Source of the DNA: Candidatus Staskawiczbacteria bacterium
Lineage (GTDB): Bacteria > Patescibacteriota > Minisyncoccia > Minisyncoccales > Staskawiczbacteraceae
DNA length: 64,000 bases
NCBI GenBank assembly: GCA_023245145.1
Contig: JAHFKW010000002.1
Location: 54,601-118,600, forward strand
Reading direction: 5' to 3'
Each line of letters opens with the position of its first letter. Position 1 is the first letter of the stretch. The notes under the pieces are model-generated. The model did not search any database. It saw nothing but the letters and a program-made list of their open reading frames with translations, and was not told where the DNA came from. Made by a program: the position numbers and the translations under genes. Positions 875 through 51,808 of this stretch are shown here, piece after piece.

Positions 875-1402
875 TCATTTCCCATCCAAAAATCGCGTGA
901 TGCGATTAGTGGTTTGGTTAAAGTCATTACTAATTTGATTCAAATTGTGACGCGTGTTTTTTTGACGTAGCTTGAAGCTCAATGACCTACATTTGATGAG
1001 CTCCAAAAATACATTATAGATTAAATCCTGCTCACCACGAGGCATATTTCCCCCAAAAGACATCCCTATCATCTGATCGATGAGATTATGCTCGTCTTCA
1101 TTTGAAGGAAAGTGTTTGGCATCTTGCCCACCGGCCATGATTTTCAGGATTTTCAACCTATTGGAAAAGTACAGGTAATCTTTCCGGTCAAACCACGGCT
1201 GACAGCGTCTAAGCACCTCCCATGCCACATCGTGACAAACACGTCTCTCGTATGTGACTATGATCAGGTGAAGTTTGTCAGCCGATTTTCGATCTTCAAC
1301 GATTTGTTGATGATGGAAACGCAATATGAAAACCGTCCCCACCAAACTTAACATAAACACCAAGAAGGCAACGTTTGATAAGAACGTTTGTCTTTTTGCC
1401 AC
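875..1402 (-). CDS. hypothetical membrane-anchored protein
   Basis: 175-aa ORF with a GTG start preceded by gggaga (SD-like) and an N-terminal hydrophobic helix (VAFLVFMLSLVGTVFIL). Its own terminator lies downstream. No recognisable family motif. Confidence 0.5.
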   Translation of the reverse strand: MAKRQTFLSNVAFLVFMLSLVGTVFILRFHHQQIVEDRKSADKLHLIIVTYERRVCHDVAWEVLRRCQPWFDRKDYLYFSNRLKILKIMAGGQDAKHFPSNEDEHNLIDQMIGMSFGGNMPRGEQDLIYNVFLELIKCRSLSFKLRQKNTRHNLNQISNDFNQTTNRITRFLDGK

Positions 1403-1590
1403 GTCATTCTCCCGTAAAAGAGTTTGATTTTTTTGATTATGTATATCATATTCTTGGCAGAAAGTCTATGACTTGTCGCATAATAAGAGTTCTTGTTTGC
1501 ATATTTTAGTGACGGGCGTATGATGATATAAAAGGAAGTTGTAATGACGTAACTGCTCTTTCCCAATTCTTTCACGGGAGGATTCACATC

Positions 1591-2556
1591 GTGAAAACCA
1601 TCGTTGTTTTTCTCTTAGTTTTGGCGGTACCGGCCATGATTATTGGTCAGCAATCGTCAAACAAGACGCACCTTGCTGAAGTCAGATTCCATGACGGCAG
1701 TATCGTGCGCATGACCATTTTGCAAGAGAATCTGGAGGTACAAACCAAGTATGGTAAGCTCACCGTTCAGCTCGCTGATGTGCGTCGCGTGGAATTCGGC
1801 TTACACGTACCACCCGAAACCGCCCAAAAAGTCGCTCAGTCAATCAAGCGACTGGCTAGCGATTTTCACAAGGAACGTGACACCGCAACAAGAGATCTGG
1901 TTCAATTAGGACGCTTCGCTTTATGGCCTCTGTTGAAGGCCTCCAAAAGTGGTGATCAGGAAGTTGCTTACCGTGCCATCGGTGCGTTAAAGCAAATTGA
2001 GGAAAGAGTGTCTCCCGATTTACTGAAACTCCAAGAAGAGGATGTGGTTTACACCGTTGAGTTTATGATGATTGGCAAAATTTGTTCGCCGACTATCAAG
2101 GCCCACTCACCATATTTTGGAGAAGTGGTGTTGAAACTTAGCGAACTACGTACCATGCACGTGAAGCATCAAAGTGGTAATCTTCATTTAGTCCTTGATG
2201 CGACCAAACATGGTAGTGCGTTGGATCAGTGGTGTGATACAGGTATGATGGTTGATACCGGCCAACGCCTAGTCATTACCAGTGAGGGGCAGGTTGACTT
2301 GTGGCCCCAGGGCGCCGGTCAATATATGGCTTCGCCCAAAGGCTACAACACGACTGGCAAAGGCGGACAATTTATGGCTGGGGCCCTGATTGGTAAAATC
2401 GGCGAAAATGGTAAAACTTTCTTCATTGGTGAGCAATATAATAGTAACGTCAATGAGGAAGGTAAACTCTATTTGCTGATTGTACCAAATCCATGGAACA
2501 GCGGCTCCACGGGTAAGTACAAGGCGCGTATTGTAACGGACTATAGTGGCCGATAG
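1591..2556 (+). CDS. secreted protein, HEAT-like helical segment plus C-terminal PA-IL/LecA-like beta-sandwich (tentative)
   Basis: GTG start with gggagga SD 7 nt upstream and a signal-peptide-like N-terminus (MKTIVVFLLVLAVPAMIIGQQ). The C-terminal pattern GQRLVITSEGQVDLWPQG...GALIGKIGENGKTFFIG...GKLYLLIVPNPWNSGSTGKYKARI resembles the PA-IL lectin as I recall it. Visibly GC-richer than the core genes. Confidence 0.55.
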   Translation: MKTIVVFLLVLAVPAMIIGQQSSNKTHLAEVRFHDGSIVRMTILQENLEVQTKYGKLTVQLADVRRVEFGLHVPPETAQKVAQSIKRLASDFHKERDTATRDLVQLGRFALWPLLKASKSGDQEVAYRAIGALKQIEERVSPDLLKLQEEDVVYTVEFMMIGKICSPTIKAHSPYFGEVVLKLSELRTMHVKHQSGNLHLVLDATKHGSALDQWCDTGMMVDTGQRLVITSEGQVDLWPQGAGQYMASPKGYNTTGKGGQFMAGALIGKIGENGKTFFIGEQYNSNVNEEGKLYLLIVPNPWNSGSTGKYKARIVTDYSGR

Positions 2557-2565
2557 TCATGCACA

Positions 2566-2601
2566 AGCCGAAGAACAAGAGAGAGTTCTTCGGCTTTTTT
2601 A
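2566..2601 (+). terminator. intrinsic terminator after 1591-2556
   Basis: agccgaagaac / gttcttcggct stem followed by tttttt. Confidence 0.75.
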
Positions 2602-2644
2602 TTTCACCCTTGTCGCATAATCATAATTTTGATAGAATAATAGT

Positions 2645-3133
2645 ATGAAGAAAGAAAAATTTAACATCGTAAATTTGGTAAATAATTCCGGCTGTTTTGA
2701 TTTGCAATTTCGCAAAGATACTCGGCACAAACGCACTAACTCCCCCACCTATTACCGTTGGAAAATCCAATTCGTCATCACCTTACCTAAATTGGAAATT
2801 GAAGCGTTAAAAAAAGCAGCTAGCCTGATAAGCTGTGGCAATATAACGGTAACGGGAAACCAAGCCAGGCTTTCCGTGCAAAACATTGATGAGATTTATG
2901 AGGCGGTAATCCCCTACTTTAAGAAAAATTTACTCGCGGGTGAAAAGAAAAAAGATTTTTCCATTTGGCAAAAAGCCGTAGAAATTGTGTACAAAAATAA
3001 AGGTAAAAAAATTACGACTTGGGAAAAAAGCGACTTGAGCTCGCTCATAGAAATTCATAAATTATCGGCAAAATATAAAGGAAGGACACACTCTGGAAAA
3101 TGGATTAACATGGCACGGACGCTAACCCGTTAA
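2645..3133 (+). CDS. free-standing LAGLIDADG-family homing-endonuclease-like protein with degenerate motif
   Basis: 162 aa. Layout matches single-motif LAGLIDADG proteins: helix IVNLVNNSGCF, then beta strands, ...CGNITV..., VIPYFKKNLLAGEKKKDFSIWQKAVEIV, then a helical tail. The acidic residues of LAGxxDGDG are replaced (NNSG). Confidence 0.5.
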   Translation: MKKEKFNIVNLVNNSGCFDLQFRKDTRHKRTNSPTYYRWKIQFVITLPKLEIEALKKAASLISCGNITVTGNQARLSVQNIDEIYEAVIPYFKKNLLAGEKKKDFSIWQKAVEIVYKNKGKKITTWEKSDLSSLIEIHKLSAKYKGRTHSGKWINMARTLTR

Positions 3134-3827: not shown

Positions 3828-3851
3828 ATCTATTGATTCTATCTATATATT

Positions 3852-3880
3852 TTGACAAATTCAAGTATATTTGCTAAGAT
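3852..3880 (+). promoter_or_regulatory. sigma70-type promoter of rpmA, near-leaderless
   Basis: TTGACA (3852-3857), 17-nt spacer, TAAGAT (3875-3880). The ATG at 3887 is only 6 nt after the -10 and has no SD. Confidence 0.55.
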
Positions 3881-3886
3881 ACAAAC

Positions 3887-4159
3887 ATGTCAACAAGTAA
3901 ATCTACAGGAGCATCCAGATTAGGCAGAGATTCGGCCGCCCAGCGTCTTGGAATTAAAATTTCCGGTGGACAAACCGCGAAAATCGGGCAGATTATCGTA
4001 CGTCAACGTGGTACGCGATATTTAGTTGGAAAAAATGTAAAAATGGGTTCTGATAACACCCTTTATGCGATGAAAGATGGTGTGGTAAAATTCACTACCA
4101 AACAAAAAAATCTATTCAATGGTAAGCAAAGAATGGCAGCCATGGTGCACGTTATGTAG
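3887..4159 (+). CDS. rpmA: 50S ribosomal protein L27
   Basis: [19 protein letters not shown]....G.IIVRQRGT...GKNV..G.D.TLYA..DG.VKF pattern; 90 aa. Confidence 0.9.
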
Positions 4160-5774
4160 TGCAAGCCCTTATAAAGGCTAAAAATAACGGATGCGGAGCA
4201 AGCGGATGAGACAAAAATTCAGGATGAAATTGAGTACCCAACATAAACGGGTGCTCTTTTTTTGATAGTTCCGCTATTTCCATTAAACGTTCATCGGGCG
4301 AAACACCGCTAAAAACCAGTCCGGCTTCTTTGAGTTTTACAATATATTCCGGATTTACTTCATAACGATGGCGGTGGCGTTCACGCACTTCATCTTTGCC
4401 ATAAGCGTCGCGGGCAATAGTGTTGGCGTTTAATTTACAAGCGTATCCCCCCAAACGCATAGTGCCGCCAAAACTCTGACGAGCCATGTTTTCTTTTTGT
4501 TCGGGCATATAATCAATGACGGTATTTTGGGCATCGGGTTTTATTTCGGCGGTATGAGCATCGGGAATTTTAGCCACATTTCGTGCGTATTCAACCACCA
4601 TCAACTGCATGCCATAACAAAGTCCCAAATAAGGAATTTTATTTTCACGCACAAATTGAATGGCACTAATAATGCCTTCCACTCCCCGACTGCCAAACCC
4701 TCCGGGCACCAGCACTCCGTCGTATTGTTTTAATTCTTGTAATTTAGCCGGGTTAATTTCATAGACTTCCGAATCAAGATACGAAAGTTTCACTCCCAAA
4801 TCCTGATGAGCACTGGCATGTTTTAAGGCTTCAATCACAGAAATATACACATCCGAAAGCACATAATCCCCCGACATAAAGTATTTTCCCAGTACCGCGA
4901 TATGTAATTTTTTATTACCATTTTTGGTTTTATCAACAAACCCCTGCCAGCTTAAAAGATCGGTGCTGCGATGTTTTAAATTCAATACATCGCATAAAAT
5001 ATCCCCCAAACCATCTTTTTCAAAATTCAGCGGGACGTCGTAAATACTTTCAACATCGGGAGCTGAAATAACGCGCTCCGGAGAAATATTACAAAAAGTG
5101 GCTATTTTTTCTTTACGTTTGGCGTCCAATGATGTGGAGGCGCGAGCTAAAATAACATCAGCTTGCAGGCCCACCGAATTTAATTCCCGACTGGCATACT
5201 GGGTTGGCTTGGTTTTCATTTCACCGATATTCTGGGGAATAGGCACGTATGAAAGCATTACCACCGCCACGTCGGTCGGACACTCGTGCTTGAGCATACG
5301 AGCCGCTTCCAAAAAAATAATATTTTGGTATTCGCCGATGGTTCCGCCCACTTCAATCAATGTCACATCTGCTTTTGCCTTTGTGGTGGCCTCCTTAATA
5401 CGGCGAATTACTTCCAATGGCACATCCGGCACCACCTCAACATTTTTACCTTTGTACTCCAAGTTGCGTTCGCGACGAATGACTTCCTGATAGACCCGAC
5501 CGGTGGTCATGTAGTTAATAGATGGCAAAGTTTCATCCAAGAATCTTTCATAATTGCCCATATCCTGATCGGTCTCATAGCCGTCGTCCAAAACAAAAAC
5601 CTCGCCGTGTTCGGTGGGGTTCATGGTACCCGCGTCAACATTTATGTATGGATCAATTTTTATTGCAGTGACCCCAAAACCCTTGTTTTTTAAAATACTA
5701 CCAATGGAAGCGGTTGCCACACCTTTGCCAATACCGCTCATAACTCCACCCACGATAAAAATATATTTTGCCAT
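4152..5774 (-). CDS. pyrG: CTP synthase
   Basis: [17 protein letters not shown]-terminus and a C-terminal glutamine amidotransferase domain ([15 protein letters not shown]); 540 aa. Confidence 0.95.
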
Positions 5775-5780
5775 AAAAAC

Positions 5781-6251
5781 CTATTCTTGTTCTTCTATTT
5801 TTTCTCCCAATTCTTCGGTAATAACCACATTAATAACTGCCTCTAAGTTATGGTCTAACTTTAGGGTAACTGGATATTCTCCTAATTCCTTGATCGGCTT
5901 TACCAATATGACGTGAGATTTTTTAACTTCAAATCCCATTTCTTTTAATTTATCTGTTATTTTTGAAGCAGTAATTGATTCAAATAACTTTTTACCATCA
6001 TGAGCTTTAACCATCATCAAAACATCAATGTCATCCAATTTAGAGGCCATTTCTTGAGCTTTTTTTAAATCCTCCTCGCTAATCTTTTCAATCACTTCTT
6101 GCTGAGCTTTTAGCCATGTTAGGTTTTCCCGATTAGCCAATTTCACCAAATTTTGGGGGATTAAAAGATTTCTGGCGTAGCCATTTTTGACCTCCTTAAT
6201 TTCAAACTTTTTCCCCACATTTTCTATGTCTTGTAATAGTATTACTTTCAT
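5781..6251 (-). CDS. rplI: 50S ribosomal protein L9
   Basis: MKVILLQDIENVGKKFEIKEVKNGYARNLLIPQ N-terminus. Confidence 0.9.
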   Translation of the reverse strand: MKVILLQDIENVGKKFEIKEVKNGYARNLLIPQNLVKLANRENLTWLKAQQEVIEKISEEDLKKAQEMASKLDDIDVLMMVKAHDGKKLFESITASKITDKLKEMGFEVKKSHVILVKPIKELGEYPVTLKLDHNLEAVINVVITEELGEKIEEQE

Positions 6252-6275
6252 ATCTTTTTATGTTTCTCTATCATT

Positions 6276-7487
6276 CTACTGTAAGCCACTAATTATTTCA
6301 AGGGCTTTATCAAGCTGTGGATCTTTTTTGGCTTCAAAATCGGCCTCGGTGAATTCTACTTTTACATCTGGAGTCAAACCTACCTCTGAAATAGAATTTC
6401 CTTTAGGAGTTAACCAGTGCGCAATAGTTATTTTTAGAAAAGAAGCATTATCTTTTAGGGCGACTACTTCTTGCACCGAACCCTTGCCAAAAGATTTTTC
6501 ACCAACAAGTTTCACATTTATATTATCTCGTAAAGCACCCGCCAAAATTTCTGACGCTGAAGCTGAACCCTTATTTAATAAAACCACTATTGGGTAACTA
6601 GCAAACACCCCATTCCCTTCAGACTTATAAATATGCTTTTCTTTAGCTTTACCAAAATCTTCAATGGTCACCACCTGACCCTGTTTTAAAAACCAACCGG
6701 CGATTTCCTGGCAGACTTCCAAATATCCACCGGGATTATTCCTAACATCTAAAATAATTTTTCGAGCTGGACTCTTTAAAACTTCGTTAGCCACTTTTTT
6801 AAAATCAGTCGAAAGACTTTGGTCAAACTGGTGAATGGTAATATGTGCTACGTCATTATTTTTTAACTCCCAATCTATGGAATTTACTTTAATAGTGGCA
6901 CGAATAATCGTGATATCTTTTGACTGCGTCCAATCGTCGCGAAATACGGTGAGCGTAACTGATGTGCCACCCTTGCCACGTATGAGTGTTACCGCCTCTT
7001 CGGTCTGCATATCAGAAGTACTTTTGCCATTAATCTTAAGAATTAAATCGCCAGGTTTTATTCCCGCTTTTTCAGCCGGTGAATCTTTCAGTGGTGCCAC
7101 CACTGTTAACTGATCTTTTTTAATCGCAATTTCAGCGCCAACGCCCTCAAAAGAACCAGCTAAATCCTGCTGGAAAGCTTTGGCCTGCTTGGGGTCAAAG
7201 AAATCGGTGTACGGGTCGCCCAAACTGCGCGTCATACCGGCGATAGCGCCATAGGTAACCTTTTCATCACTAATTTTTTCCGGAGTAATAAACTTTTGAT
7301 GCAACACATCATATGCATTCCAAAACAGCGAAAAATTGAAATTTGAAGACTGGGCAGAAAGCATCGCGTGCTTTTGTCCGGCCGAAAATCCCGAACCAAA
7401 AACAACTAGTGACACGACTAGTACTACCAAATAACTAAATATTTTTGAATGGAACCTTAACATTGTTAAATTTATTCTACTATCCAA
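6276..7487 (-). CDS. S41 carboxy-terminal processing peptidase (PDZ-containing)
   Basis: PDZ-like GIKPGDLILKINGKS, catalytic-serine region NKGSASASEILAGAL and an N-terminal TM helix. Confidence 0.85.
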   Translation of the reverse strand: MDSRINLTMLRFHSKIFSYLVVLVVSLVVFGSGFSAGQKHAMLSAQSSNFNFSLFWNAYDVLHQKFITPEKISDEKVTYGAIAGMTRSLGDPYTDFFDPKQAKAFQQDLAGSFEGVGAEIAIKKDQLTVVAPLKDSPAEKAGIKPGDLILKINGKSTSDMQTEEAVTLIRGKGGTSVTLTVFRDDWTQSKDITIIRATIKVNSIDWELKNNDVAHITIHQFDQSLSTDFKKVANEVLKSPARKIILDVRNNPGGYLEVCQEIAGWFLKQGQVVTIEDFGKAKEKHIYKSEGNGVFASYPIVVLLNKGSASASEILAGALRDNINVKLVGEKSFGKGSVQEVVALKDNASFLKITIAHWLTPKGNSISEVGLTPDVKVEFTEADFEAKKDPQLDKALEIISGLQ

Positions 7488-8541
7488 TTAGTTTCAGCAC
7501 AACCCCAATAATTGCCAGAACGATGCCAATAATCCAGGCGCGCATAACCACTTTATACGCTGGCCAACCAATAGCCTCAAAATGATGATGAATGGGCGTG
7601 GATAAAAATATTTTTTTCTTACGAATTTTTTTTGACACTAACTGAATAATAACCGAGGCAACTTCCAGCACCAAAAGTCCTGCGATAACCGGCAAAACCA
7701 ATACCGAATCAGTTAAAAATGCGACAGTTGCCAAAACCGCCACCAACCCCAAGCTTCCCGTTTCGGACATATAAAACCTGGCCGGTGGAATATTAAACCA
7801 CAAAAAGGCGAATAAGGTACCGGTAATTACCGCGCAAAAGGTAGCTAAGTCAACCTTGCCTTGAGAAAAAGCAATAATGGTAAACGCTCCAAAAATAGAA
7901 GCAAATGTACCACCCGAAAGTCCATCCAAACCATCAATAATTCCGCCAGACCAGCAAGCCACCATTACAATTACAAAAAGCGGGATGTAAAAAATACCGA
8001 TAGAAAATTGTCCCATGAGTGGAATACTAATAACATCCCAGTCTAATTTATAGTAAAACCACAAACCGGCCAAAAGTCCCATAAGAGCAATCACCAGTAA
8101 TCTTTTGGAAAAAGATAATCCCCCGCCAACGTATTTTCCCAGATTAGAAACCACTAATATGTCATCTAAAAGTCCAAAGAGTGACGCCCCCACCAGCACC
8201 AACAACGGCAACCAGGTTTGACTTCTGGTTAAAAAATTAAGATTGGCGAATATGGAATTTGGCATTAATAAAAATCCCGTGTAGTAAAATAAAGCAACTA
8301 ATAACACCGTACCCCAAATAATCAATCCTCCCATGCGAGGCACACTGACTTCTCTTTCTTTGTGTAAACTGTTAAAGACTACGGCCTCCTCGCCACTAAT
8401 GGCTTTTTTACCGCCAGTTTTTTTCCAAAGTTTGTGCTTGTATAAAAAATCAATTAAAATTGGCGACCACAAAACAGCAATAATAGAGGCAACCGAAGAT
8501 GTGCCCAATACTTTTATCACATTAAAGGTTAGGAGTGTCAT
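7480..8541 (-). CDS. mraY: phospho-N-acetylmuramoyl-pentapeptide transferase
   Basis: Polytopic membrane protein with GLLDD, IDGLDGL and PIHHHFE motifs. Confidence 0.9.
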   Translation of the reverse strand: MTLLTFNVIKVLGTSSVASIIAVLWSPILIDFLYKHKLWKKTGGKKAISGEEAVVFNSLHKEREVSVPRMGGLIIWGTVLLVALFYYTGFLLMPNSIFANLNFLTRSQTWLPLLVLVGASLFGLLDDILVVSNLGKYVGGGLSFSKRLLVIALMGLLAGLWFYYKLDWDVISIPLMGQFSIGIFYIPLFVIVMVACWSGGIIDGLDGLSGGTFASIFGAFTIIAFSQGKVDLATFCAVITGTLFAFLWFNIPPARFYMSETGSLGLVAVLATVAFLTDSVLVLPVIAGLLVLEVASVIIQLVSKKIRKKKIFLSTPIHHHFEAIGWPAYKVVMRAWIIGIVLAIIGVVLKLIG

Positions 8542-10902: not shown

Positions 10903-10907
10903 AATTT

Positions 10908-11617: not shown

Positions 11618-11621
11618 TTTT

Positions 11622-12295: not shown

Positions 12296-12299
12296 ATAT

Positions 12300-39933: not shown

Positions 39934-39936
39934 GGT

Positions 39937-41511: not shown

Positions 41512-41545
41512 TTGACAAGGTCAAGTGTTTCACATATAATGTGAA
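41512..41545 (+). promoter_or_regulatory. perfect-consensus sigma70 promoter with 7-3-7 inverted repeat over the -10
   Basis: TTGACA (41512-17), 17 nt, TATAAT (41535-40). ttcacat-ata-atgtgaa (41529-45) is a perfect inverted repeat. Confidence 0.65.
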
Positions 41546-41587
41546 GAAAGAGTAAATTATTGAGACAAGTCATTAAAAAGTTTCACT

Positions 41588-42316: not shown

Positions 42317-42754
42317 TGCATCAGCACCCCACCCGTGTCGCACCAGTTTAGCCCGTGTGACGAGATGTTAGCGAACTTGAGCATAATTAGGCAGCTTCAG
42401 CCACCGGGGCAATATGAGGGCGTGTGGCAAAATTGAATCAATTTTAATCACCAAGTGGTAAATTGGCTTGGCAAAGCGAAAAATGGTATAATACAGGTAG
42501 AAAGGCAAAATTAAACGTCAACCACCGCCAATTCGAGAGGAACAGGAGACAGCAAAGCAGAATTAGAAAAGCAAGAAAAAACCATCTAGGATTTGACCCT
42601 GAAATCAATGCAATCCGACCATGATCAATCCCTATTTGGCGCACATTAAGATTAAAGAATTAAAAAGCCGAAAATGAAGCTATTTTGGCTCAAATAATTG
42701 GCACTTACCGCATCTACCAATGCGGATTTTCCTTAATGATTTCGGCAACTAAAA

Positions 42755-43324: not shown

Positions 43325-43534
43325 TTTAATACGCTATAATTTTATTATGCAGTGTGAGAAGCTGCTTTTTTTTGCATCAAACTAAGTTCTGGGGTATTCT
43401 CTACTCCCTCGTATGATGCGTTCAGAACGCTAAATTGGGAAAAGTTAAGGGTAGAAATGAATGTTTTAAGTAATATTTGACCCTGCTTGCAATTTTATTT
43501 TAAAAGGCGCAAAATTAGGGCACTAAATTGAAAC

Positions 43535-46500
43535 ATGGTAAGTGGGAATACACCTAATTTTAACGAATCGATTACGCCAAAGCCTTTTAATTTTGGCGAT
43601 AATCAAAAACAGAAATCCATTCATGAAAGACTGGGGCGGCTTGTTGGTCCCGGTCCCGCTGCTTTCTACAAAGACGCTTGTAGGCATATAACAATAGCCC
43701 CTCCATTTGAATCCTCTACTCATATTGTTGGTCATTTGGTGAGGGAAATAGAAAGTGCTCTAAGAGACGTTTTGGAGTCCATTAGCGACGAACCGGCAAA
43801 AACCCAAAAAAAGGAAGAACATAAACAAGAAATTATTGTTATTCTTAAGGCGCTTGAAATTCCCGAGCAGGATCCGATTGCGCAGGCGTGGATTAGCCTT
43901 GCAGGCGAAGATGGTTTACCAAAACGCGCCCACAGAGACAACTTAGAAGTGGCACGCCCTATTGATAAGGAATACCTTGAATTTTGGACCCAAATGGAAG
44001 TTATTCTTGATGTAGTATTGGATAAATTTGAAGGTCAGTATGTTAAGGTTTTTGCCCTATTGGATGCTCTTGCACAAAAACTTGATCCTACAGCAGAAGA
44101 TGCCAAAATAATTCATTTGCATGTGCCAAATAACCTTGTTGCTCACCAAAGATTTTTTGGCCAGCTAGCTAATCCCAAATGGCTACCTTTTTTAAATACA
44201 CAAGGCTTATTTTCTGACCCACCAAAGGTTGAGCAAGATCCCGAGAGCGGTGGAGTTAGACATTTGCCATGGCCAGCTTTATTTTATTTAGAAAAAATAG
44301 CACCGACCAATCCGGATCTTGTAACAGAAATTTTATTGGCAGTTAAGGACACAGAAAACTCAAGCGTAAAAAGAGATTTACTCAAAATTACGGCTATTCT
44401 CCCAAAGGAAAAAAAGTTATTACTTACAGCAAAGATTGGATCTTGGCTACAAACAAGTAATTCATTTTTTCAATACGGACTAATCGAGCCAGGCAGTGCT
44501 CTAATGAAGGGCTTTACTGAAGATGGCGAAGAAGAATTTGCTTTTGAGATTGCGAAAAGATTTTTAGAAATCCTTCCAGATCCTCAACCGCCCCAGGGAG
44601 ACGATTTTTATACTCCTGATTCCAGACCAACAACAAGATTGGAGTCCTGGTATTATCAAAAATTCTTAAATGAAGATTTTCGGAAACTTATCACGGTCAA
44701 TCCAAAAAAGTCCTTTGTTTTTGTTTGCGACCTGCTGGTTAATTATCTAAAACTCGAGAGGCAAAACAAGAGCCAGGAAGATAAGGAATATTATAGGGAT
44801 TACTCATACATCAAAAGGCCAGCGGTAGAAAATCATGAACAAAATCACGATCGGGATGACACAGAAAATCTACTTATTAATGCTATCCGTGACATTGGTT
44901 TGCAGGTAGTTCAACTAAATTCCCAGGAATTGAAATGGGTTATATTAGAACTGGAAGCCAGAAAGTGGGGTATTTTCAAAAGAATAGCTATACACTTTTT
45001 GGGTCAATGGCCGGAAGCGGAAAGAGATTTGACCGCCAAATATCTCACAGATGAATCCTTATTTAATGAATCTGATTTTCAGCATGAACAGGGTCAGTTA
45101 ATGAATAAGGGATTTAAGCTACTAGACACAAAAGAACAAAATACGATACTAGAATGGATTGAAAATGCCCAAGAAGCTCGCGATTTCATTGAAGTCAGAA
45201 AAAAAGAAACTTCCGTTACACCCGCGCAGGAAAAAAAGAAAATAAATGCTTGGCAGAGAGATCAGCTTTTTTATATGAAAAACGACCTGCCAGAAGAATG
45301 GAAGAAGCGGTATGCGGAATTTGCACTAGAGTATGGAGAGCCAGAACACCCAGATTTTCCCACCTATATGACTAGTTGGGTTGGTCCCACTAGCGAAGTT
45401 AATTCTCAAGAGTTAGTCGAGATGGATGCACAAAATATTATCAAGCTCCTTAAAACCTGGATACCTAAAGATGAAGTTCATGGCTTTGGTTCCACAAAAG
45501 AAGGGTTAGGACGTGAATTGACCTTAGCAATAAAGGCTAAACCAGATAAATTCGAGGATTTAGTAGAGGAATTCAAAGATCTAGATCCCACATATGTTAG
45601 AGCTTACGTTCAAGCTTTTAGCGAATTAATCCAAGGTAATTACCAATTAAGTTGGGCGAGAATTCTTGACCTCTGTTTTTGGGTTGTTCAACAGCCAAGA
45701 GCAATAATAGACAGGAAAAGCAAAGGCTTGGATCAGGATCCCGACTGGGGCTGGTGTCGAAGAACAATCGCATCACTTCTTTCACGAGGGCTGAATGATG
45801 GCAGCATACCATTTGAACTAAGAGAGACTGTTTGGAAAATTATTGAGCCCTTGACTCAGGATCCTGATCCTAGACCAGAAGATGAAAGTAAACGGGAAGA
45901 ACAAAGCGATGATGCATACACAGATGCCATTAATCGCACAAGAGGGGAAGCTATGAATGCAACTGTAGAATATGCCTTATGGACTCATCGATCTATTGAA
46001 AAAGAAATCGATGGCAAAGAGAAACTAAAGGAAGGATTTAATTTGATGCCTGAGGTAAGAATTGTGCTTGAATGGCACTTAAAGGCTCAAAATGACCCAT
46101 CGAGAGCAGTGCGTTCGATTTACGGGAGATTTTTGCCGTGGCTCATGCTTATCGATAGAAAATGGGTTTTGGAAAATATCGATAAGATTCTGCCCCCAGG
46201 CCAATTTGAAGATCGGCTTTATATCGCAGCGTGGAATACATTAATGTTATACGTTCCAGTTTACAATGACCCTTTTGATTTATTAAAAGATCGCTATCAG
46301 GAGGCAATTCAAAATTTGGGTAAAATCGATAAAAAGAGAACGAGACACATAGATAGAGACGAAAGAGTTGTTGAGCATTTAATGCTTCAATATGGAAGGG
46401 GTAAAATTGAACTAAATGAACCACTTTTGGTGAGCTTTTGGAAATTAGCAGATGATAAATTACGAGGCCATGCCATCGGTTTTATAGGTAGAGGATTGCG

Positions 46501-46972
46501 AAGCGAAAAAGAGGAGATAGATCCGAAAACATATGTAAGAATGAAGGCACTATGGGAAAGTCGTCTAAATGAAGCCAAGTCTGCTGAAAATAAAGCAGAT
46601 TACAAAGAAGAAATGTCCGCCTTCGGATGGTGGTTCATCTCTAATAAATTTGAAGATAAGTGGTTATGTGAACAATATTCGGAAGCCTTAGAGATTGGGA
46701 AGAATATCCAACTGGACTACGTTGTTCTTGAGCGATTAGCTGAAATAAGTAAGAGTTTACCCGCTGAGGCTTTGAATATTTTAGCTAAACTAGTTTTATC
46801 GGATCAACCCGGGTGGGCTGTAATTGGCAATAAAGGGGAAATAGTTCAGATTCTGACCATTGCCTTAGCTTCGCCGGAAAAAAATGCTCAAGTTATCGCC
46901 ACTGAACTTATAAATCGTTTAGTATCTAGGGGTCACGCAGAATTTAATGACTTGCTACAAAAAAACCGCTAA
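43535..46972 (+). CDS. 1145-aa all-helical (HEAT/ARM-like) protein of unknown function
   Basis: Longest ORF in the window. I found no P-loop, nuclease or peptidase motif by eye. The C-terminus looks like helical repeats (LERLAEISKSLPAEALNILAKLVLSD...). The start codon is uncertain because there is no RBS. Confidence 0.65.
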   Translation: MVSGNTPNFNESITPKPFNFGDNQKQKSIHERLGRLVGPGPAAFYKDACRHITIAPPFESSTHIVGHLVREIESALRDVLESISDEPAKTQKKEEHKQEIIVILKALEIPEQDPIAQAWISLAGEDGLPKRAHRDNLEVARPIDKEYLEFWTQMEVILDVVLDKFEGQYVKVFALLDALAQKLDPTAEDAKIIHLHVPNNLVAHQRFFGQLANPKWLPFLNTQGLFSDPPKVEQDPESGGVRHLPWPALFYLEKIAPTNPDLVTEILLAVKDTENSSVKRDLLKITAILPKEKKLLLTAKIGSWLQTSNSFFQYGLIEPGSALMKGFTEDGEEEFAFEIAKRFLEILPDPQPPQGDDFYTPDSRPTTRLESWYYQKFLNEDFRKLITVNPKKSFVFVCDLLVNYLKLERQNKSQEDKEYYRDYSYIKRPAVENHEQNHDRDDTENLLINAIRDIGLQVVQLNSQELKWVILELEARKWGIFKRIAIHFLGQWPEAERDLTAKYLTDESLFNESDFQHEQGQLMNKGFKLLDTKEQNTILEWIENAQEARDFIEVRKKETSVTPAQEKKKINAWQRDQLFYMKNDLPEEWKKRYAEFALEYGEPEHPDFPTYMTSWVGPTSEVNSQELVEMDAQNIIKLLKTWIPKDEVHGFGSTKEGLGRELTLAIKAKPDKFEDLVEEFKDLDPTYVRAYVQAFSELIQGNYQLSWARILDLCFWVVQQPRAIIDRKSKGLDQDPDWGWCRRTIASLLSRGLNDGSIPFELRETVWKIIEPLTQDPDPRPEDESKREEQSDDAYTDAINRTRGEAMNATVEYALWTHRSIEKEIDGKEKLKEGFNLMPEVRIVLEWHLKAQNDPSRAVRSIYGRFLPWLMLIDRKWVLENIDKILPPGQFEDRLYIAAWNTLMLYVPVYNDPFDLLKDRYQEAIQNLGKIDKKRTRHIDRDERVVEHLMLQYGRGKIELNEPLLVSFWKLADDKLRGHAIGFIGRGLRSEKEEIDPKTYVRMKALWESRLNEAKSAENKADYKEEMSAFGWWFISNKFEDKWLCEQYSEALEIGKNIQLDYVVLERLAEISKSLPAEALNILAKLVLSDQPGWAVIGNKGEIVQILTIALASPEKNAQVIATELINRLVSRGHAEFNDLLQKNR

Positions 46973-47058
46973 TTGAAGGACAAAAATGACCTTAAAGCGG
47001 CGTGTGTGGCCTAAATTTGAACTGTGTGCAGGCTATTTTGTAAATCTTGGCAAAGGTA

Positions 47059-47487
47059 TCAGCTATGGCTTTTATTGATTAGACCTCGGGCAATATTGAC
47101 GGCCTGTTGAAATAGGTTAAACTTTTGAGTAGTAAATGGGATTGCATAGTTACTTTTCCAGGCACTACTCTGTTTTTGTGCCCAATATCCAAGATTTGCA
47201 TTTTGTGTAGCTGCTGAAATTACCTCTAAGGTTCCCGTAATTAGATTTTTCTTAATCTCAATACCTACTACATTACGGTAATCGAAAGCAGTGCAACGTC
47301 CTCCGAACGTATTACCGGTCATGTAGCCCCATTTTATAATGTAAATATGACGGTCTGTAAGCACGAAAGCTTGTCCCCATGGCGCCTTTAGTTTTACGAC
47401 GATCTTCTCACTTGGCTGCATATTTGCGGCAAGATGTTTTTCACCACGCGATCCTAACGATTCGATGAGAGAAGTATTATTATTCAT
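47059..47487 (-). CDS. bacterial PH-domain-like (YokE-type) protein, start trimmed to MNNNTSL...
   Basis: GEKHLAANMQPSEKIVVKLKAPWGQAFVLTDRHIYIIKWG...FDYRNVVGIEIKKNLITGTLEVI follows the bPH pattern as I recall it. Confidence 0.4.
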   Translation of the reverse strand: MNNNTSLIESLGSRGEKHLAANMQPSEKIVVKLKAPWGQAFVLTDRHIYIIKWGYMTGNTFGGRCTAFDYRNVVGIEIKKNLITGTLEVISAATQNANLGYWAQKQSSAWKSNYAIPFTTQKFNLFQQAVNIARGLINKSHS

Positions 47488-47751
47488 GGTTTTTATTTTT
47501 AATAATATTTGACTGCGGGTAAACAAAAAGTCCACCACAGGTAGCGGCCGAAGCCGCCCATATAGGTTTCCCTATACGACCGAACAAACGGATCCCATGA
47601 TGGATTCTTTATGTTTGTTCGGATTTTTTACCATGCCCATAGAAAAACCCATGGGTTTAGGCAAACGATATTAAATTGTTGCTTGATTATAGCTTCTTTC
47701 GGGTTTCTTATCAACTCTTGTAAATCCTTACAATAAAATCATTCTGCACAT

Positions 47752-47960
47752 TTGACAATATCTTTGGACCTGCTAAAATGGAGGCAAGGTAGTGTTCTTT
47801 CAAGGAAATAAATAGAAAAACAAAAACTTTTCGTAACCTCTTCAGAGCAACTTTTGAGGCAACTCAACGACAAAAGTAGGTTCGTCACGTGTTAGTGGCG
47901 GCTCTTCTTTTGTTTTTGGAAAAAAGCAAGACCCTACAAACACATAGGGTCTTTTTGTTG
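47752..47960 (+). ncRNA. candidate ~170-nt sRNA (consensus promoter to intrinsic terminator, no ORF)
   Basis: TTGACA (47752-57), 16 nt, TAAAAT (47774-79). Terminator agacccta/tagggtct plus ttttgtt (47929-60). The only ATG gives 4 codons. Confidence 0.35.
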
Positions 47961-47963
47961 TAG

Positions 47964-48397
47964 ATAATCTTGAACGCCAAAAATCCAAGGAAGCCCATTG
48001 CTCACTTGGCAAGTCTTAGAACTGGCGTTCAAGAACTTGCTAAGCGAATAGTGGGCTTCTTTATTTTTTCTAACAATACTCTTGCCCGAGCAGATGAGAT
48101 CGCTCGTCTATTCAGGCAAGAGAATTAAAATCTCTTGGAGCAAATACTATCACTGAGTATCAGTGACTATTCAAGCCCTAGGGCGAATTCCATAGGGGGC
48201 TTGTAAATCAAAATAGCTATGGACTTGATAATAACTGCCTTATACGGGAAGCATTATCAAAACACTGATCACGTTAAAGCTAAATGTTCTTGGGAGTGAT
48301 CAGGTTTACGGCTCGGAAGCGATAGTATCCAAGTTAGAGCAAGAGCTAAGTCGTCTCCCAGAGAAAAGGGATAAAAGACGCTGCGAACTTCTGGAAT
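47964..48397 (+). pseudogene. possible decayed coding remnants in three frames
   Basis: Hand translation gives protein-like stretches interrupted by stops and frameshifts: ...NPRKPIAHLASLRTGVQELAKRIVGFFIFSNNTLARADEIARLFRQEN*, ...DLIITALYGKHYQNTDHVKAK, then with a shift VLGSDQVYGSEAIVSKLEQELSRLPEKRDKRRCELLE*. Confidence 0.25.
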
Positions 48398-48490
48398 GAA
48401 AATTCCTTGGGGGTAAGGGGGCTCTTGAAATTCAGCCATACCGGGAAGCAGTTATCAAAAGGTCGAAAAGTTAACAAAAAAATAAAACTT

Positions 48491-48634
48491 ATGAACAAAA
48501 CATCACAAAGTTTAGCAAGCAAAAAACTTGAGGAAGAAATCAGCAAGAGCTATGCGACGCATTACAGAAAGCAGCATTCAGAATCTATCAAGAGAGGTTT
48601 AGCGGCGGCAAAGGCAAGAAAAAAATCTTTTTAA
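48491..48634 (+). CDS. small basic hypothetical protein (internal start of track ORF 48407-48634)
   Basis: MNKTSQSLASKKLEEEISKSYATHYRKQHSESIKRGLAAAKARKKSF; weak support. Confidence 0.3.
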   Translation: MNKTSQSLASKKLEEEISKSYATHYRKQHSESIKRGLAAAKARKKSF

Positions 48635-48668
48635 CAGGGAATAATTAATAAAAACACTCGACCCTCTC

Positions 48669-49088
48669 ATGTTATCGCACGAAGCCATAAAAAAATACCA
48701 GAAGATTTACCGCAAGCTATTCGGAATAGAAATCTCTCTCGAAGAAGCGGCTGAACAAGCAACACGACTCTTGAATGTAGCCCGCGTTGTTTTTCAGCCC
48801 ATGCCAAAATCATTTGAAAAACGATATAACGAATTACTGCAAGAAAAGCATTTGAAAGCTCAAAGAGAGAAAATCATCTACCAGAAAGTAAAGCCAAGAC
48901 TGCAATACGTTTACGCGACAGACGTTTGTGCAGAAGCCGATTACATGCAATCCGTGGCTGGCGATAACTTGCAAACGAATAACCGTGGCCTTGTCACAGA
49001 TCTTTTGGCTTTGAGGCAAAGCTGTGCAATAATGCTGGGCTTCGGAGCCAGCAGAGGAATTACGGCAGCTAATTTGGCGTGCGGATAG
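48669..49088 (+). CDS. hypothetical protein upstream of the recombinase
   Basis: 139-aa ORF. The N-terminal ~75 aa are helical and protein-like, while the C-terminal part looks less so, so the real end is uncertain. Confidence 0.4.
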   Translation: MLSHEAIKKYQKIYRKLFGIEISLEEAAEQATRLLNVARVVFQPMPKSFEKRYNELLQEKHLKAQREKIIYQKVKPRLQYVYATDVCAEADYMQSVAGDNLQTNNRGLVTDLLALRQSCAIMLGFGASRGITAANLACG

Positions 49089-49130
49089 GATTGCTATGTC
49101 ACACGGACCCGCTATAATGTTAATAATGTT

Positions 49131-50873
49131 ATGAAAAAACAAGAAATCATAAAACTTGCGGGCTATTTTAGAAAGTCCTCTGAAGACAATGATCGTCAGA
49201 TTTTAAGTATTCCGGCACAAATTCCATGGGCTGAAAACCTAGTAGCGCGCCTCGGTCTAGAAATGCAAGAAATATTCAAAGAAGAACGCTCGGCAACGAC
49301 ACCCTACCGACGACCGGAATTTGACAACCTCGTCGCAAAAATCAGAAGTGGAACAATTAATGCGATTGTTTGCTGGAAACTTGACCGTCTCGCCCGTAAT
49401 CCCGAAGAAGCAGGTATTATTCTTGGCCTACTAAAGCGAGGAGAACTCAAGCGCATCATAACCAATGACCGCGAGTATCGTCCTGAAGACAATACTATTA
49501 TTTCTTACGTGGACTTCGGCATGGCTGATCAGTTTTCCCGTGATTTAAGTAAAAATGTAAAACGTGGTCTGTGGCAAAAAGCCAGCGCAGGTGAACGGCC
49601 GGGCGCCCTTCCTCTGGGCTACATTCAAAAACCGGGCATGGCTAGAGGTGAAGCAGTAAACATTCCCGATCCGGATCGATTTGAACTGGTAGAGCGCATG
49701 TTTCATCTTTTTTTAGCCGGCACCTACTCTGTCAGGGAATTGCAACGAGAAACAGTAAAATGGGGACTTAAAACTCGGCAAACCAAGCGACAAGGAGGTA
49801 AAGATGTTAGTATTTCCCAAATTTACAATATGCTGGGAGACCCATTTTATTGTCGCTTGTATTGGTGGATGAATAACGATACCGGAGAAATTGAACAGCG
49901 CATTGGCAATCACAAAGCGATGATTACCGAAGAAGAACACGAAATCATTTTAAGAAAACTGGGTAATAGAAGAAAATCAAGGCCAAAGAATAAAAACAAG
50001 CAACTCCCCTACCTTGGAAAAATGGAATGTGGAGAGTGTGGCTGTGCAGTTACCGGAGAAGATAAATACCAAATTATTTGCACCATTTGTAAAAGAAAAT
50101 CAGCGCTCACCGACAAAAGAAAAGATTGTCCGGGATGTAGCACAAAAATTGAAGAAATGAGAGAACCGAAAATTCTCCATTACATTTATTATCATTGCAC
50201 CAAGAGAAAAAATCGAAAATGCACTCAGTATTCGGTAACAGTGGGACAACTGGAAAAAATAGTTGATTCGGCTATTGAAGAATTCACACTCTCTGAAGCC
50301 TTCACGACATGGGCGCTGGAGGAACTCGAAAAAGATACTAATTACCAAATCAAAAGCCAAAACACCGTCATCAACTCGCAGCAAGAGCAATACAAGATCA
50401 CCGTCGCCTCACTCCAAAACCTTACGAAACTCTACACCTCACCCAAAAACGTGAATGGTGCGTTGCTTTCCATGGAAGAATACCAAACGCAACGAGAAGA
50501 ACTCCTTGCAGAAAAAAAGCGACTCGAGAAAGATCAACAAGTCACAGGACGCAAAATTGAAGAATGGATTGATTGGGCGACTAACTCTTTTGACTTTGCA
50601 ACAGCCGCAAGGGTTTGGTTTGAAAAGGGATCACCCCAACAGAAACGAGACATCTTCTTCTCGCTCTCCGGTTCGAACCTAATTTTGAAAGATGAAAAGC
50701 TAGGTATTTCCCTAAAGAAACCACTAGACTTCTATTCCGCCATCGCAATTGCTTACCCTTCAACAAAAATCAGGTTAGAACCTGAAAAAATGACCCAAAA
50801 TGAAGCTAAATACCTTCCTTTCGCGGCAGATATTCCACGCTTGCAGGGGAACTGGGAATCGAACCCAGGCTAA
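49131..50873 (+). CDS. large serine recombinase
   Basis: Resolvase catalytic domain (AGYFRKSSEDNDRQILSIPAQ, WKLDRLARN), a recombinase domain, Cys-rich zinc ribbon (CGECGCAVTGE...YYHCTKRKNRKC) and a coiled-coil tail; 580 aa. Confidence 0.85.
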   Translation: MKKQEIIKLAGYFRKSSEDNDRQILSIPAQIPWAENLVARLGLEMQEIFKEERSATTPYRRPEFDNLVAKIRSGTINAIVCWKLDRLARNPEEAGIILGLLKRGELKRIITNDREYRPEDNTIISYVDFGMADQFSRDLSKNVKRGLWQKASAGERPGALPLGYIQKPGMARGEAVNIPDPDRFELVERMFHLFLAGTYSVRELQRETVKWGLKTRQTKRQGGKDVSISQIYNMLGDPFYCRLYWWMNNDTGEIEQRIGNHKAMITEEEHEIILRKLGNRRKSRPKNKNKQLPYLGKMECGECGCAVTGEDKYQIICTICKRKSALTDKRKDCPGCSTKIEEMREPKILHYIYYHCTKRKNRKCTQYSVTVGQLEKIVDSAIEEFTLSEAFTTWALEELEKDTNYQIKSQNTVINSQQEQYKITVASLQNLTKLYTSPKNVNGALLSMEEYQTQREELLAEKKRLEKDQQVTGRKIEEWIDWATNSFDFATAARVWFEKGSPQQKRDIFFSLSGSNLILKDEKLGISLKKPLDFYSAIAIAYPSTKIRLEPEKMTQNEAKYLPFAADIPRLQGNWESNPG

Positions 50874-50914
50874 AGGTTTTGGAGACCTTTGTGATACCAC
50901 TTCACCATTCCCCT
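50844..50914 (-). tRNA. tRNA-Trp (anticodon CCA), no encoded CCA end
   Basis: Hand-drawn: AGGGGAA-TG-GTGA-AGTGGTA-TCAC-A-AAGGT-CTCCAAA-ACCTT-TAGC-CTGGG-TTCGATT-CCCAG-TTCCCCT-G. The 3' 30 nt overlap the recombinase ORF end in antisense. Confidence 0.85.
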
Positions 50915-50924
50915 ATTTTAATTT

Positions 50925-50953
50925 ATAATATCTAAATTTTACTGTTTCGTCAA
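50925..50953 (-). promoter_or_regulatory. tRNA-Trp promoter
   Basis: Minus strand: TTGACG (50948-53), 17 nt, TATTAT (50925-30), 10 nt before the mature 5' end. Confidence 0.55.
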
Positions 50954-50990
50954 AAAAATTCCCCCTCCTTGACTCTCGTCAAAGCGGGGG
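50952..50990 (-). terminator. strong intrinsic terminator after the lipoprotein gene
   Basis: ccccc..tttgac-gaga-gtcaagg..ggggg stem, then aattttttt on the minus strand. Confidence 0.7.
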
Positions 50991-50995
50991 TTAGC

Positions 50996-51808
50996 TCATT
51001 TCTTAGGAATATCCTCTTTGAGAAGTTTTTTCTCAAAGAAAGCTTTATTCCTCAAAAGAGCTGCTTCGAAAGCCAGTCGCCGTTCTTTCTGAAATTCAGC
51101 GAATCTGGCCAATTCGTTTTTATAGTGTTCATCATAGCCTGGTTTCATCACCAAGCTAGACGACCAAACGTTGCGAGCCACTTCCTTATGCTCACCATAG
51201 AAACAGTATGCTTTCAGCTCCCCATCTTTCTTGCTCATCTCCCTCGCCTGCAACGCGTAAAACTTACCACGTTGCACATTACAATAGGCCTCGAATTCGG
51301 TCTTTTCAATGTGATGATAGTGTCCCCACTCTTCCGAAACTAGGCCCTTCTTTACTTCCGGAGGTTTTTTAGGTGGTGGAGGTGGAAGTGCAGGCTTTTT
51401 CTTTTCACGCTCCTCCGCCGCTTTTTCGAGTGCCTCCTTAAGCTTTCTTTCGTACTCTGGCCGTAATCTTTCTTCCGCCTTTTTTGTGGCTTCAGCCAGA
51501 AGCTCATCGTCCTTGACTTTCTTGATTGCCTCCTCTTTCCTTAGACGATTCAACTCCTCCTCGACAGCAATGTCAAGAATAGCCTTCTCTTTCTTCGCCT
51601 TTTCCATGGCACGGAATGCCGCTGCATCTCTTGCATCGGCTTCCGCTTTTTTCTTAGCGGCATTTTCCTCCGGAAATGGTTCAACGATAACCTTGGGAGC
51701 AATCACCGCCGGCGGACTAGGCGGTGAACTTTTTTTCTCCTCTTTTGAGCAGCCAACAAAACCAGTAAGAGAAACCAAAAAAACCGCCAAAACCAGTTTA
51801 CGAAACAT
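50996..51808 (-). CDS. lipoprotein with charged coiled-coil and Pro-rich linker, unknown C-terminal domain
   Basis: Signal peptide plus lipobox-like LTGFVGC, Lys/Glu/Ala-rich region and PALPPPPPKKPPE. SD aaggag and promoter TTGACA-17-TACAGT (51887-51915). GC-richer. Confidence 0.65.
   Translation of the reverse strand: MFRKLVLAVFLVSLTGFVGCSKEEKKSSPPSPPAVIAPKVIVEPFPEENAAKKKAEADARDAAAFRAMEKAKKEKAILDIAVEEELNRLRKEEAIKKVKDDELLAEATKKAEERLRPEYERKLKEALEKAAEEREKKKPALPPPPPKKPPEVKKGLVSEEWGHYHHIEKTEFEAYCNVQRGKFYALQAREMSKKDGELKAYCFYGEHKEVARNVWSSSLVMKPGYDEHYKNELARFAEFQKERRLAFEAALLRNKAFFEKKLLKEDIPKK

Follow-up and report, generated by a model that had tools for sequence, protein, structure and literature searches.

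Shine-Dalgarno-led accessory genes among predicted leaderless and coupled core genes in a genome segment of a probable Parcubacterium

Introduction

Bacteria with frequent leaderless transcription, among them Actinobacteria and Deinococcus-Thermus, make up group C of the GeneMarkS-2 scheme (Lomsadze et al. 2018, PMC6028130). Here, we describe the gene starts in a stretch of 64,000 nt (positions 54,601 to 118,600 of contig JAHFKW010000002.1; from here: the window), in which most core genes lack a Shine-Dalgarno (SD) motif and a minority of genes carries a strong one. As in group C, a Pribnow (−10) box is found 6–8 nt from the start of first genes of operons, leaderless and SD-led genes appear to share one genome, and genes of atypical GC content are taken as likely horizontal transfers. 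Operon-internal genes are normally SD-led in group C, whereas 29 of the 30 internal genes in the window have no SD and seemingly depend on coupling and A-rich starts.

Start regions of the Bacteroidota, which represent group B of the scheme, are Kozak-like. The window resembles group B in its A-rich and G-poor starts, with A at positions −3, −6 and −8/−9, and in core genes that are almost free of SDs. Group B uses a single non-SD motif on all genes together with leadered mRNAs, whereas a third of the starts in the window are explained by start-adjacent promoters.

For Parcubacteria, an anti-SD sequence was reported to be detectable in only 48% of the 16S rRNA genes, and the lineages without anti-SD overlap those without the ribosomal protein uL1 (Tsurumaki et al. 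2022, RNA 28:1041, PMC9297842). The window probably belongs to the same group, and most of its genes are likewise implied to start without SD pairing. That study dealt with rRNA and ribosomal proteins, whereas the mRNA start regions are considered here, and conserved leadered SDs suggest that pairing has been retained.

Horizontal transfer into Patescibacteria was found to account for up to 13% of the genome length (mSystems 2025, PMC12455944). The window shares with the acquired genes and genomic islands described there the atypical composition, the patchy presence among relatives and a recombinase next to a tRNA gene, as well as an exchange that is mostly intra-Patescibacteria with occasional donors from other phyla. 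Expression signals were not addressed in that work and Planctomycetes are not among its donors, whereas the acquired genes in the window are marked by a leader and an SD. Each ingredient of our description is already known, namely leaderless genomes, SD-poor Parcubacteria, transfer into Patescibacteria and genes of atypical GC, and no new mechanism is involved. A full-text literature search returned no paper joining "leaderless", "Shine-Dalgarno" and Patescibacteria, and in a broader search on leaderless transcription and the Candidate Phyla Radiation (CPR) the word "leaderless" was absent from the top-ranked papers.

An initial annotation of the window had opposed SD-less, AT-rich core genes to scattered, GC-richer genes with strong SDs, and had interpreted the latter as self-contained expression units acquired repeatedly from an SD-using donor of higher GC by a host that does not rely on SD pairing. 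The observation is real but was overstated, and the interpretation is partly supported. No reason was given at that time for the lack of SDs in core genes; the transcript architecture proposed below would explain it. We lean towards the view that core starts are leaderless or coupled, and that the SD-led minority consists of leadered accessory units enriched in acquired genes.

Methods

The curated list comprises 70 genes, with starts corrected where family alignments or other assemblies demanded it. The longest-open reading frame (ORF) starts of typA, of the S41 protease gene, of trmD and of 47059-47538 were moved to internal ATGs. Genes were called SD-positive at an anti-SD duplex energy of −7 kcal/mol or lower. 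A raw tally of SD 5-mers preceding ORFs was confounded by in-gene starts and was exchanged for tests of starts versus decoy positions. Core gene names were backed by family searches for uppS, rpmA, pyrG, rplI, mraY, aspS, tyrS, murC, thpR, efp, prmC, rplU, rplJ/rplL, mltG, mraZ/rsmH, a PBP2-type transpeptidase, copA, a DsbA-like gene, trmD, typA and an FKBP gene.

Results

SD use in the window falls into two classes, being depleted in most genes and strong in a minority. Twelve of the 70 genes (17%) are SD-positive compared to 4.4% of random positions (binomial p = 5e-5), and duplexes at gene starts are weaker (median −0.8) than those at random positions (median −1.7). SD-positive genes exceed the others in GC (0.422 vs 0.396, p = 0.016) and in GC at third codon positions (GC3; 0.459 vs 0.386, p = 0.004), and their median length is 109 compared to 197 aa. 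Curated labels annotated 2/12 SD-positive and 38/59 SD-negative genes (Fisher p = 0.003), a contrast that is slightly weaker than this value indicates, since a further SD-positive gene received a GIY-YIG domain in a later Pfam scan.

All SD-like motifs listed in the initial annotation were present where it had placed them, and the core starts described there as SD-less were indeed without SD (uppS, pyrG, rplI, mraY, aspS, tyrS, murC, thpR, efp, prmC, rplU, rplL, mltG, copA, the dsbA-like gene, typA, trmD and the FKBP gene). The statement that every GC-richer small gene has an SD did not survive: nine genes with GC ≥0.43 lack a strong SD, e.g. 42755-43324, 48669-49088, 14486-14758 and the partial gene 2-762, and two genes of the GC-rich cassette described below have only weak motifs. 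Conversely, six SD-positive genes are not GC-rich.

The link to composition was replicated in related loci. Among close relatives (128 genes; tyrS identity 62–76%) five genes are SD-positive (3.9%), a fraction no higher than at decoy positions, and these lie +0.087 over the GC of their locus (p = 1e-6). In farther relatives (419 genes) the 47 SD-positive genes lie +0.021 over locus GC (p = 0.001). In-gene decoys of the relatives gave no SD-GC link (p = 0.35 in the close and p = 0.19 in the farther set), and upstream decoys gave a weaker one that was confined to the close set (+0.041, p = 0.028). All five SD-positive genes of the close relatives are GC-rich accessory genes; purC-like, GNAT and HAD-like genes of this kind stand 6–13 GC points above their locus and have the same unit architecture as those in the window. 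Over the 70 window genes, scoring of SD energy, a check proposed genome-wide with the initial annotation, bears out two-class SD use and its association with GC and GC3. The association is modest in the window, has exceptions in both directions and, for GC, recurs strongly in the relatives.

The starts of many SD-less genes lie directly behind promoter elements. A −10-like hexamer ends 5–9 nt 5′ of the start in 22 of the 70 genes, compared to 5.2 ± 2.1 at random ATGs, and the distance peaks sharply at 6 nt (10 genes). Full promoters, with a −35 element, a spacer of 16–18 nt and a −10 box ending 6 nt before the ATG, were found at rpmA, rplU, thpR, a LAGLIDADG gene, an amino-acid permease gene and a small ftsL-like gene. 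At rpmA (3828-4159, plus strand) the promoter TTGACA-17-TAAGAT ends exactly 6 nt before the ATG, and a leaderless transcript is predicted. A similar geometry recurs at the LAGLIDADG gene (start at 2645), thpR (16581), rplU (23290), the permease gene (28813) and prmC (22559), and typA has TATAAT 7 nt before its true ATG (61689). The arrangement is kept in the relatives' orthologues of thpR, tyrS and the HHH_8 gene. With a −10 box at a distance of 6 nt, transcription would start on the first letter of the ATG; therefore, these mRNAs are predicted to be leaderless and, judged by promoter geometry, the transcripts of the 22 genes look leaderless. The LAGLIDADG gene (2645-3133, plus strand), with TAGAAT 6 nt before its ATG, encodes a free-standing homing endonuclease between the Planctomycete-like gene described below and uppS; an rRNA or intron context was not detectable for it.

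Among the operon-internal genes, 22 of 30 follow their predecessor with a gap of ≤8 nt, 6 of them overlapping, and only one has an SD. The core operon region 4152-16003 (minus strand; pyrG, rplI, S41 protease, mraY, carboxypeptidase, aspS...tyrS, murC) has gaps of −20 to +24 nt, and its upstream regions are A-rich and SD-less except for that of the DUF5674 gene. The start regions show an excess of A at −3, −6, −8 and −9 and a shortage of G at −1 and −4. Tight spacing and A-rich starts fit a coupling or re-initiation of internal genes. Core genes would then be SD-less because their promoters abut the start codons and the operon genes are tightly coupled. The exceptional DUF5674 gene (11954-12295, minus strand) is operon-internal and AT-rich (GC 0.32), and its GGAGGTG (12305-12311), the strongest SD of the window, lies within the end of the gene upstream of it. 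As proof of native SD use this SD was dropped, the orthologue in locus L013 having none.

SDs and start-adjacent −10 boxes are mutually exclusive. No gene of the farther relatives has both, where 5.2 are expected, and the only one in the window has a GAGGT that directly abuts its −10 box TAAAAT. Eleven of the 41 first genes have an SD. Promoters of the TTGACA type drive the core genes rpmA, rplU, uppS and typA as well; consensus promoters are therefore a host feature and no hallmark of foreign genes. A promoter scan over 35.5–52.5 kb gave a total of 34 sites compared to 35.4 in shuffled sequences, so that our promoter assignments are based on individual near-consensus sites and on geometry. 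Terminator-like sites are enriched over the same interval (33 vs 17.9).

The SD-led genes of the window stand alone as units that consist of a promoter where one is recognizable, about 30–80 nt from the −10 box to the start, the SD, the ORF and a hairpin followed by a T-run. The hairpin and T-run were found after every SD unit. Of the initial claim that these units possess their own promoters and terminators, the terminators thus hold throughout, while TTGACA promoters are not specific to them. The spacer between SD and start is 4–8 nt in all units but one.

The first of these units (875-1413, minus strand) encodes a 175-aa membrane protein with a GTG start (gene 875-1402), preceded by GGGAGA at 1408-1413 (spacer 5 nt) and followed by a hairpin terminator. 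The unit 16618-16845 (plus strand) contains the promoter TTGACT-17-TATTGT, the SD AAGGAGA (16668-16674; spacer 6 nt), a 34-aa ORF (16681-16785) and a hairpin terminator, and occupies a variable intergenic site. Between the rplU terminator and prmC, the unit 22560-22930 (minus strand) encodes a 99-aa protein (22622-22921) and has its own terminator; its G-rich GGGGGAAGA (22922-22930) touches the ATG (spacer 0 nt) and is the exception mentioned above. A 91-aa coiled-coil-like protein (28968-29243) is encoded in the unit 28956-29290 (plus strand), beside tRNA-Glu (28851-28925), with AAGGGGA at 28956-28962 (spacer 5 nt) and a terminator. The unit 35968-36157 (minus strand) harbors a 30-aa hydrophobic ORF (35998-36090) that is also called by gene callers on other assemblies; here the promoter TTGACG-16-TATAAT (36157-36130), 39 nt from the end of the −10 box to the ATG, is combined with GGAGGT (36095-36100; spacer 4 nt) and a terminator at 35991-35968. 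A lipoprotein of 270 aa (50996-51808; GC 0.46) is encoded beside tRNA-Trp in the unit 50996-51915 (minus strand), with the promoter TTGACA-17-TACAGT (51915-51887), 78 nt between the end of the −10 box and the ATG, TAAGGAG at 51815-51821 (spacer 6 nt) and a terminator.

A Pfam search with ten GC-richer proteins (the eight longer ones of the SD units, 40290-40583 and 42755-43324) gave no significant family. The N-terminal sequences of 875-1402 and 39937-40254 contain a hydrophobic membrane-type segment, that of 1591-2556 a secretion signal and that of 50996-51808 a lipoprotein signal. At the site between thpR and the HHH_8 gene, which holds the 34-aa unit in the window, both L019 and L024 have other units, in which a TTGACA promoter is combined with an SD; the L019 unit has a visibly high GC and a hairpin terminator at its end.

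The SD-led gene 1591-2556 (unit 1576-2600, plus strand) encodes a secreted protein of 321 aa. It has a GC of 0.475 and a GC3 of 0.49, the SD GGGAGGA at 1576-1582 (spacer 8 nt) and a hairpin terminator after the stop codon. Its protein has 349 homologues with 60–70% identity, and every named one belongs to Planctomycetes or Gemmataceae. A Gemmataceae copy has a GC of 0.61, a GC3 of 0.78 and the SD GAAGGAGG. A second Patescibacteria lineage (L098/L099; background GC 0.40) carries a copy in a different genomic context; this copy is 80% identical to the Planctomycete cluster, has a GC3 of 0.66 and is flanked by the SD TAAGGGGA and a terminator. No copy has diverged further than that of the window (70% at most) or come closer to host composition, and GC3 descends from 0.78 via 0.66 to 0.49 from the donor-like to the window copy. 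Sequences upstream of the two Patescibacteria copies no longer resemble each other. Family copies lie at 1591-2556 (plus strand) in the window, at 5001-5966 in L098 and at 213-1202 in L094. As judged by homologues and composition, 1591-2556 was acquired from Planctomycetes. The C-terminal ~130 residues of the structure model (pLDDT 77) resemble the fold of LecA/PA-IL, a galactose-binding lectin (Foldseek E = 8e-5), and the protein could be an adhesin that hints at a partner organism.

Another SD-led gene encodes a cas4-like protein (40789-41436, minus strand; GC 0.49) whose family occurs mainly in Patescibacteria. Its SD AAAGGAGA lies at 41442-41449 (spacer 5 nt). The divergent partner is the gene of a TrmB-type helix-turn-helix regulator (41588-42316, plus strand) with the native GC of 0.41 and no SD. 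This divergent pairing is kept in three Patescibacteria lineages at a protein identity of 51–53%, and the intergenic regions of 141–152 nt can be aligned (41437-41587 in the window, 5849-6000 in L012 and 4860-5000 in L100). Common to the three are the palindromes TCACA-N-TGTGA and TTGAC-N3-GTCAA, an element similar to a −10 box and, before the ATG, an SD rich in purines; the two palindromes are likely operators. The model of the cas4-like protein is confident (pLDDT 96), with H5, H7, D9, E78, E80 and H119 invariant, and a fold search gave no PDB match at E below 1e-3. In the Andersenbacteria locus L012 (GC 0.495), start-adjacent −10 boxes and SD-led starts are mixed and show no GC contrast.

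The cas4-like gene is the first of a GC-rich cassette of four genes (39539-41449, minus strand) with a strong terminator at 39570-39539. It is followed by 40290-40577, which has a weak GGAG motif and the promoter TTGACA-17-TAGAAT at 40721-40693, by 39937-40254 with the SD AAAGGAGAG (40259-40267; spacer 4 nt) and by 39586-39933, which has a GC of 0.57 and the weak motif AAAGGAA (39940-39946; spacer 6 nt). The related loci L001-L008 do not contain the cassette. A phage origin of the cassette and its neighbouring genes was rejected, as searches gave no relative in viral contigs and no PHROG match. Between the cassette and a methyltransferase gene lies a stand-alone GIY-YIG nuclease-domain gene of 79 aa (39077-39316, minus strand; GC 0.30) with a weak SD-like GAAGGCGGGA.

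Beside the cassette the strand flips to a GC-elevated stretch (41588-50914, plus strand). Its gene 43535-46972 (plus strand) encodes a protein of 1145 aa, of which residues 414-1143 match the PADLOC Dsr1 model (defence-associated sirtuin 1; E = 7e-54). The protein has no Pfam or NCBIfam match, the N-terminal 400 residues are without assignment, and this was the sole match of the defence-system scan. A large serine recombinase is encoded at 49131-50873 (plus strand) and overlaps the end of tRNA-Trp (50843-50914, minus strand). The recombinase and the 1145-aa gene co-occur in the window and in L001, L002, L003 and L005. No convincing att-type direct repeats were found in a search across 38000-52500. 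The stretch 41588-50914 is probably a mobile defence element in Patescibacteria. Within the same stretch, a LOOT RNA (47543-47663, minus strand; Rfam RF03000, 94 bits) is located directly upstream of the small gene 47059-47487.

Apart from 1591-2556, some SD units sit at sites that vary between relatives or beside this recombinase-bearing element. Horizontal acquisition of the units other than 1591-2556 is plausible, judged otherwise from composition. The proposed repeated acquisition of self-contained units thus finds support in the Planctomycete-derived gene and in the site-variable units. A single donor is not supported because the cas4-like family belongs mainly to Patescibacteria and 39586-39933 has no homologue.

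Discussion

In the explanation that we favor, first genes would be transcribed from sigma-70-type promoters whose −10 box ends about 6–8 nt before the ATG, so that the mRNA would begin at or next to the start codon. Downstream genes, which overlap or are separated by a few nt and have A-rich, G-poor starts, would be reached by coupling or re-initiation. The SD-led minority (about 17% of the genes), enriched in accessory and horizontally acquired genes, would have leadered mRNAs and classical SD-dependent initiation. The host ribosome most likely still has a working anti-SD, and the two start styles would be a matter of transcript architecture (leaderless or coupled on one side, leadered on the other) no less than of gene origin. 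In the host, SD pairing probably works and is not a relic, because three Patescibacteria lineages have conserved the leader and the SD of the cas4-like gene and because the Planctomycete-derived gene kept its SD in two lineages despite the drift to host composition.

Several results weigh against this explanation. Sixteen of the 41 first genes (efp, mraZ, rplJ, FKBP and others) lack both signals, SD and start-adjacent −10 box, and some of them have repeat-containing leaders; therefore, at least one further initiation mode has to be assumed. The window shows a modest SD-GC link, part of which is compositional, given p = 0.058 for an in-gene decoy. Most SD-positive genes encode small uncharacterized proteins of untraceable origin, and the homologue search with 39586-39933 found none. 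The cas4-like gene holds a GC of 0.49–0.50 in hosts of 0.40–0.43, whereas the regulator tracks host GC, a combination that simple recent transfer does not explain. Finally, the SD of the DUF5674 gene is missing in L013, and the low detection rate of anti-SDs in Parcubacteria (PMC9297842) sits poorly with a working SD-pairing ribosome.

The latter two points are what one would cite for SD motifs as non-functional leftovers from SD-using donors of higher GC, in a host whose ribosome lacks SD pairing, an alternative that we regard as unlikely. Core genes lie below random sequence in SD potential, close relatives are no more often SD-positive than decoys with all five cases being GC-rich accessory genes, and the rplJ-rplL genes (36192-37092, minus strand) adjoin mltG upstream and not rplK-rplA. 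Given the reported overlap of anti-SD-less and uL1-less lineages (PMC9297842), the absence of rplK-rplA before rplJ-rplL is only suggestive. Leftovers of this kind are difficult to reconcile with the SD of the Planctomycete-derived gene, which outlived a fall of GC3 from ~0.78 to 0.66 and 0.49 in two lineages, and with the cas4-like leader and SD kept in three lineages at the protein identity given above. The spacers are in the canonical range in all but one unit, and the exclusion between SDs and start-adjacent promoters is as expected if SDs serve leadered mRNAs. The retention of the cas4-like gene and its regulator, with operator-like palindromes, could also be taken to indicate that the SD-led GC-richer genes are a native, regulated, leadered class selected on expression or mRNA properties, with transfer being incidental. 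The constant GC of 0.49–0.50 of the SD-led cas4-like gene next to a regulator at host GC and the mixed start styles without GC contrast in L012 agree with this possibility, which we nevertheless hold to be quite improbable: 1591-2556 is clearly of Planctomycete origin, close relatives have differing units at one shared site, and the cassette is absent from L001-L008 and contains a gene without homologue. Moreover, the ribosomal-protein genes, expected to be highly expressed, have a GC3 of only 0.32–0.41; therefore, high GC3 is no expression signature here.

It is very improbable that the pattern is an artefact, i.e. that chance SDs in GC-richer DNA were combined with starts picked to suit, or that chimeras or contamination were involved. 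GC-richer DNA does yield more chance SD matches, as the in-gene decoy indicates, several of the ORFs are tiny (30–34 aa), and in the initial annotation internal starts had been picked for 28968 and 41436. Yet, SD-positive starts are enriched in the window (p = 5e-5), and the decoys of the relatives have little or no GC link (upstream p = 0.028 vs p = 1e-6 at true starts). Database proteins share the exact starts (P0001 with 215 aa; genes of 95, 105, 115 and 30 aa are called), and homologues are of matching length, 213–230 aa and ~321–330 aa. The same joins recur in independent assemblies from several samples, and chimeras, a possibility that the initial annotation had put forward for checking, are thereby excluded: the cassette with both flanks is present in at least four samples, and uppS, the LAGLIDADG gene and the Planctomycete-like gene are joined in a 99.2%-identical strain variant.

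If the explanation that we favor is correct, gene finders and expression predictions, which assume SD-type or single-motif starts for Patescibacteria, would meet mixed styles, and this would explain mis-called starts in metagenome-assembled genomes (MAGs). The combination of leader, SD and terminator would be a cheap marker of accessory or acquired genes in such genomes. The conservation of SDs in a group in which half of the 16S genes reportedly lack an anti-SD raises the question whether SD pairing was truly lost there. The lectin-like gene of Planctomycete origin offers a testable hint on the partners of an uncultured lineage. A more far-reaching speculation, which we think distinctly unlikely, is that in SD-poor Parcubacteria the leadered, SD-led GC-richer genes form a maintained second expression channel and, moreover, that the lectin-like gene, present in two Patescibacteria lineages, might mark Planctomycetes as physical host or partner of these presumed episymbionts. 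Acquired genes would then be selected to keep SD initiation, with native genes leaderless or coupled.

Other features of the window

The window has a GC of about 0.40 and the majority of its genes is on the minus strand. The kin of its genes come from MAGs that for the most part bear the labels Paceibacterota, Parcubacteria, Minisyncoccia or Andersenbacteria. The contigs of these relatives hold DUF5671, DUF5674 and 23S_rRNA_IVP neighbours, families typical of the CPR. On the basis of these labels and neighbours the host is therefore a Patescibacterium of the small-genome CPR, probably of the Parcubacteria. The RNA genes comprise three tRNA genes and one LOOT RNA; the window contains no rRNA gene, and among 93 sequences searched the sole 16S rRNA gene was found in the distant locus L087.

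The left end of the window cuts off a gene without SD (2-762, minus strand; GC ~0.45), whose protein is secreted or membrane-anchored. The plus-strand ORFs 260-511 and 524-754 were rejected as genes, being spurious antisense frames of it.

A 26-nt element, RACTTTATAACTTTYAACTTTATAAC, occurs three times compared to 0.01 expected: at 17566-17591 (plus strand), 32678-32703 (minus strand) and 58539-58564 (plus strand). One copy precedes efp, one precedes mraZ, and the third adjoins tRNA-Tyr. The 11-mer core of the element has 19 matches compared to 2.8 expected, often as tandems with a period of 8 nt and in part inside genes. The element may be the operator of a regulator, possibly of MraZ, by analogy with the AAAGTG boxes of Mollicutes. 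Repeats of another kind, CATGTTCCATG, are located upstream of rplJ (36192-37130), and downstream of rplJ-rplL, small genes and a ClpB-like gene take the place of rpoB.

Two blocks of the core region appear to vary. A VirD4/TraD-like type IV coupling protein of 821 aa is encoded together with two subsequent small uncharacterized genes at 18360-21788 (minus strand); no such block was seen behind efp in the relative L019, so that it may be variable. The tyrS-aspS interval (10908-13265, minus strand) contains two uncharacterized genes, the DUF5674 gene and a Yip1-domain gene, and differs among close relatives: L024 lacks it, L019 has a shorter version, and L013 has part of it.

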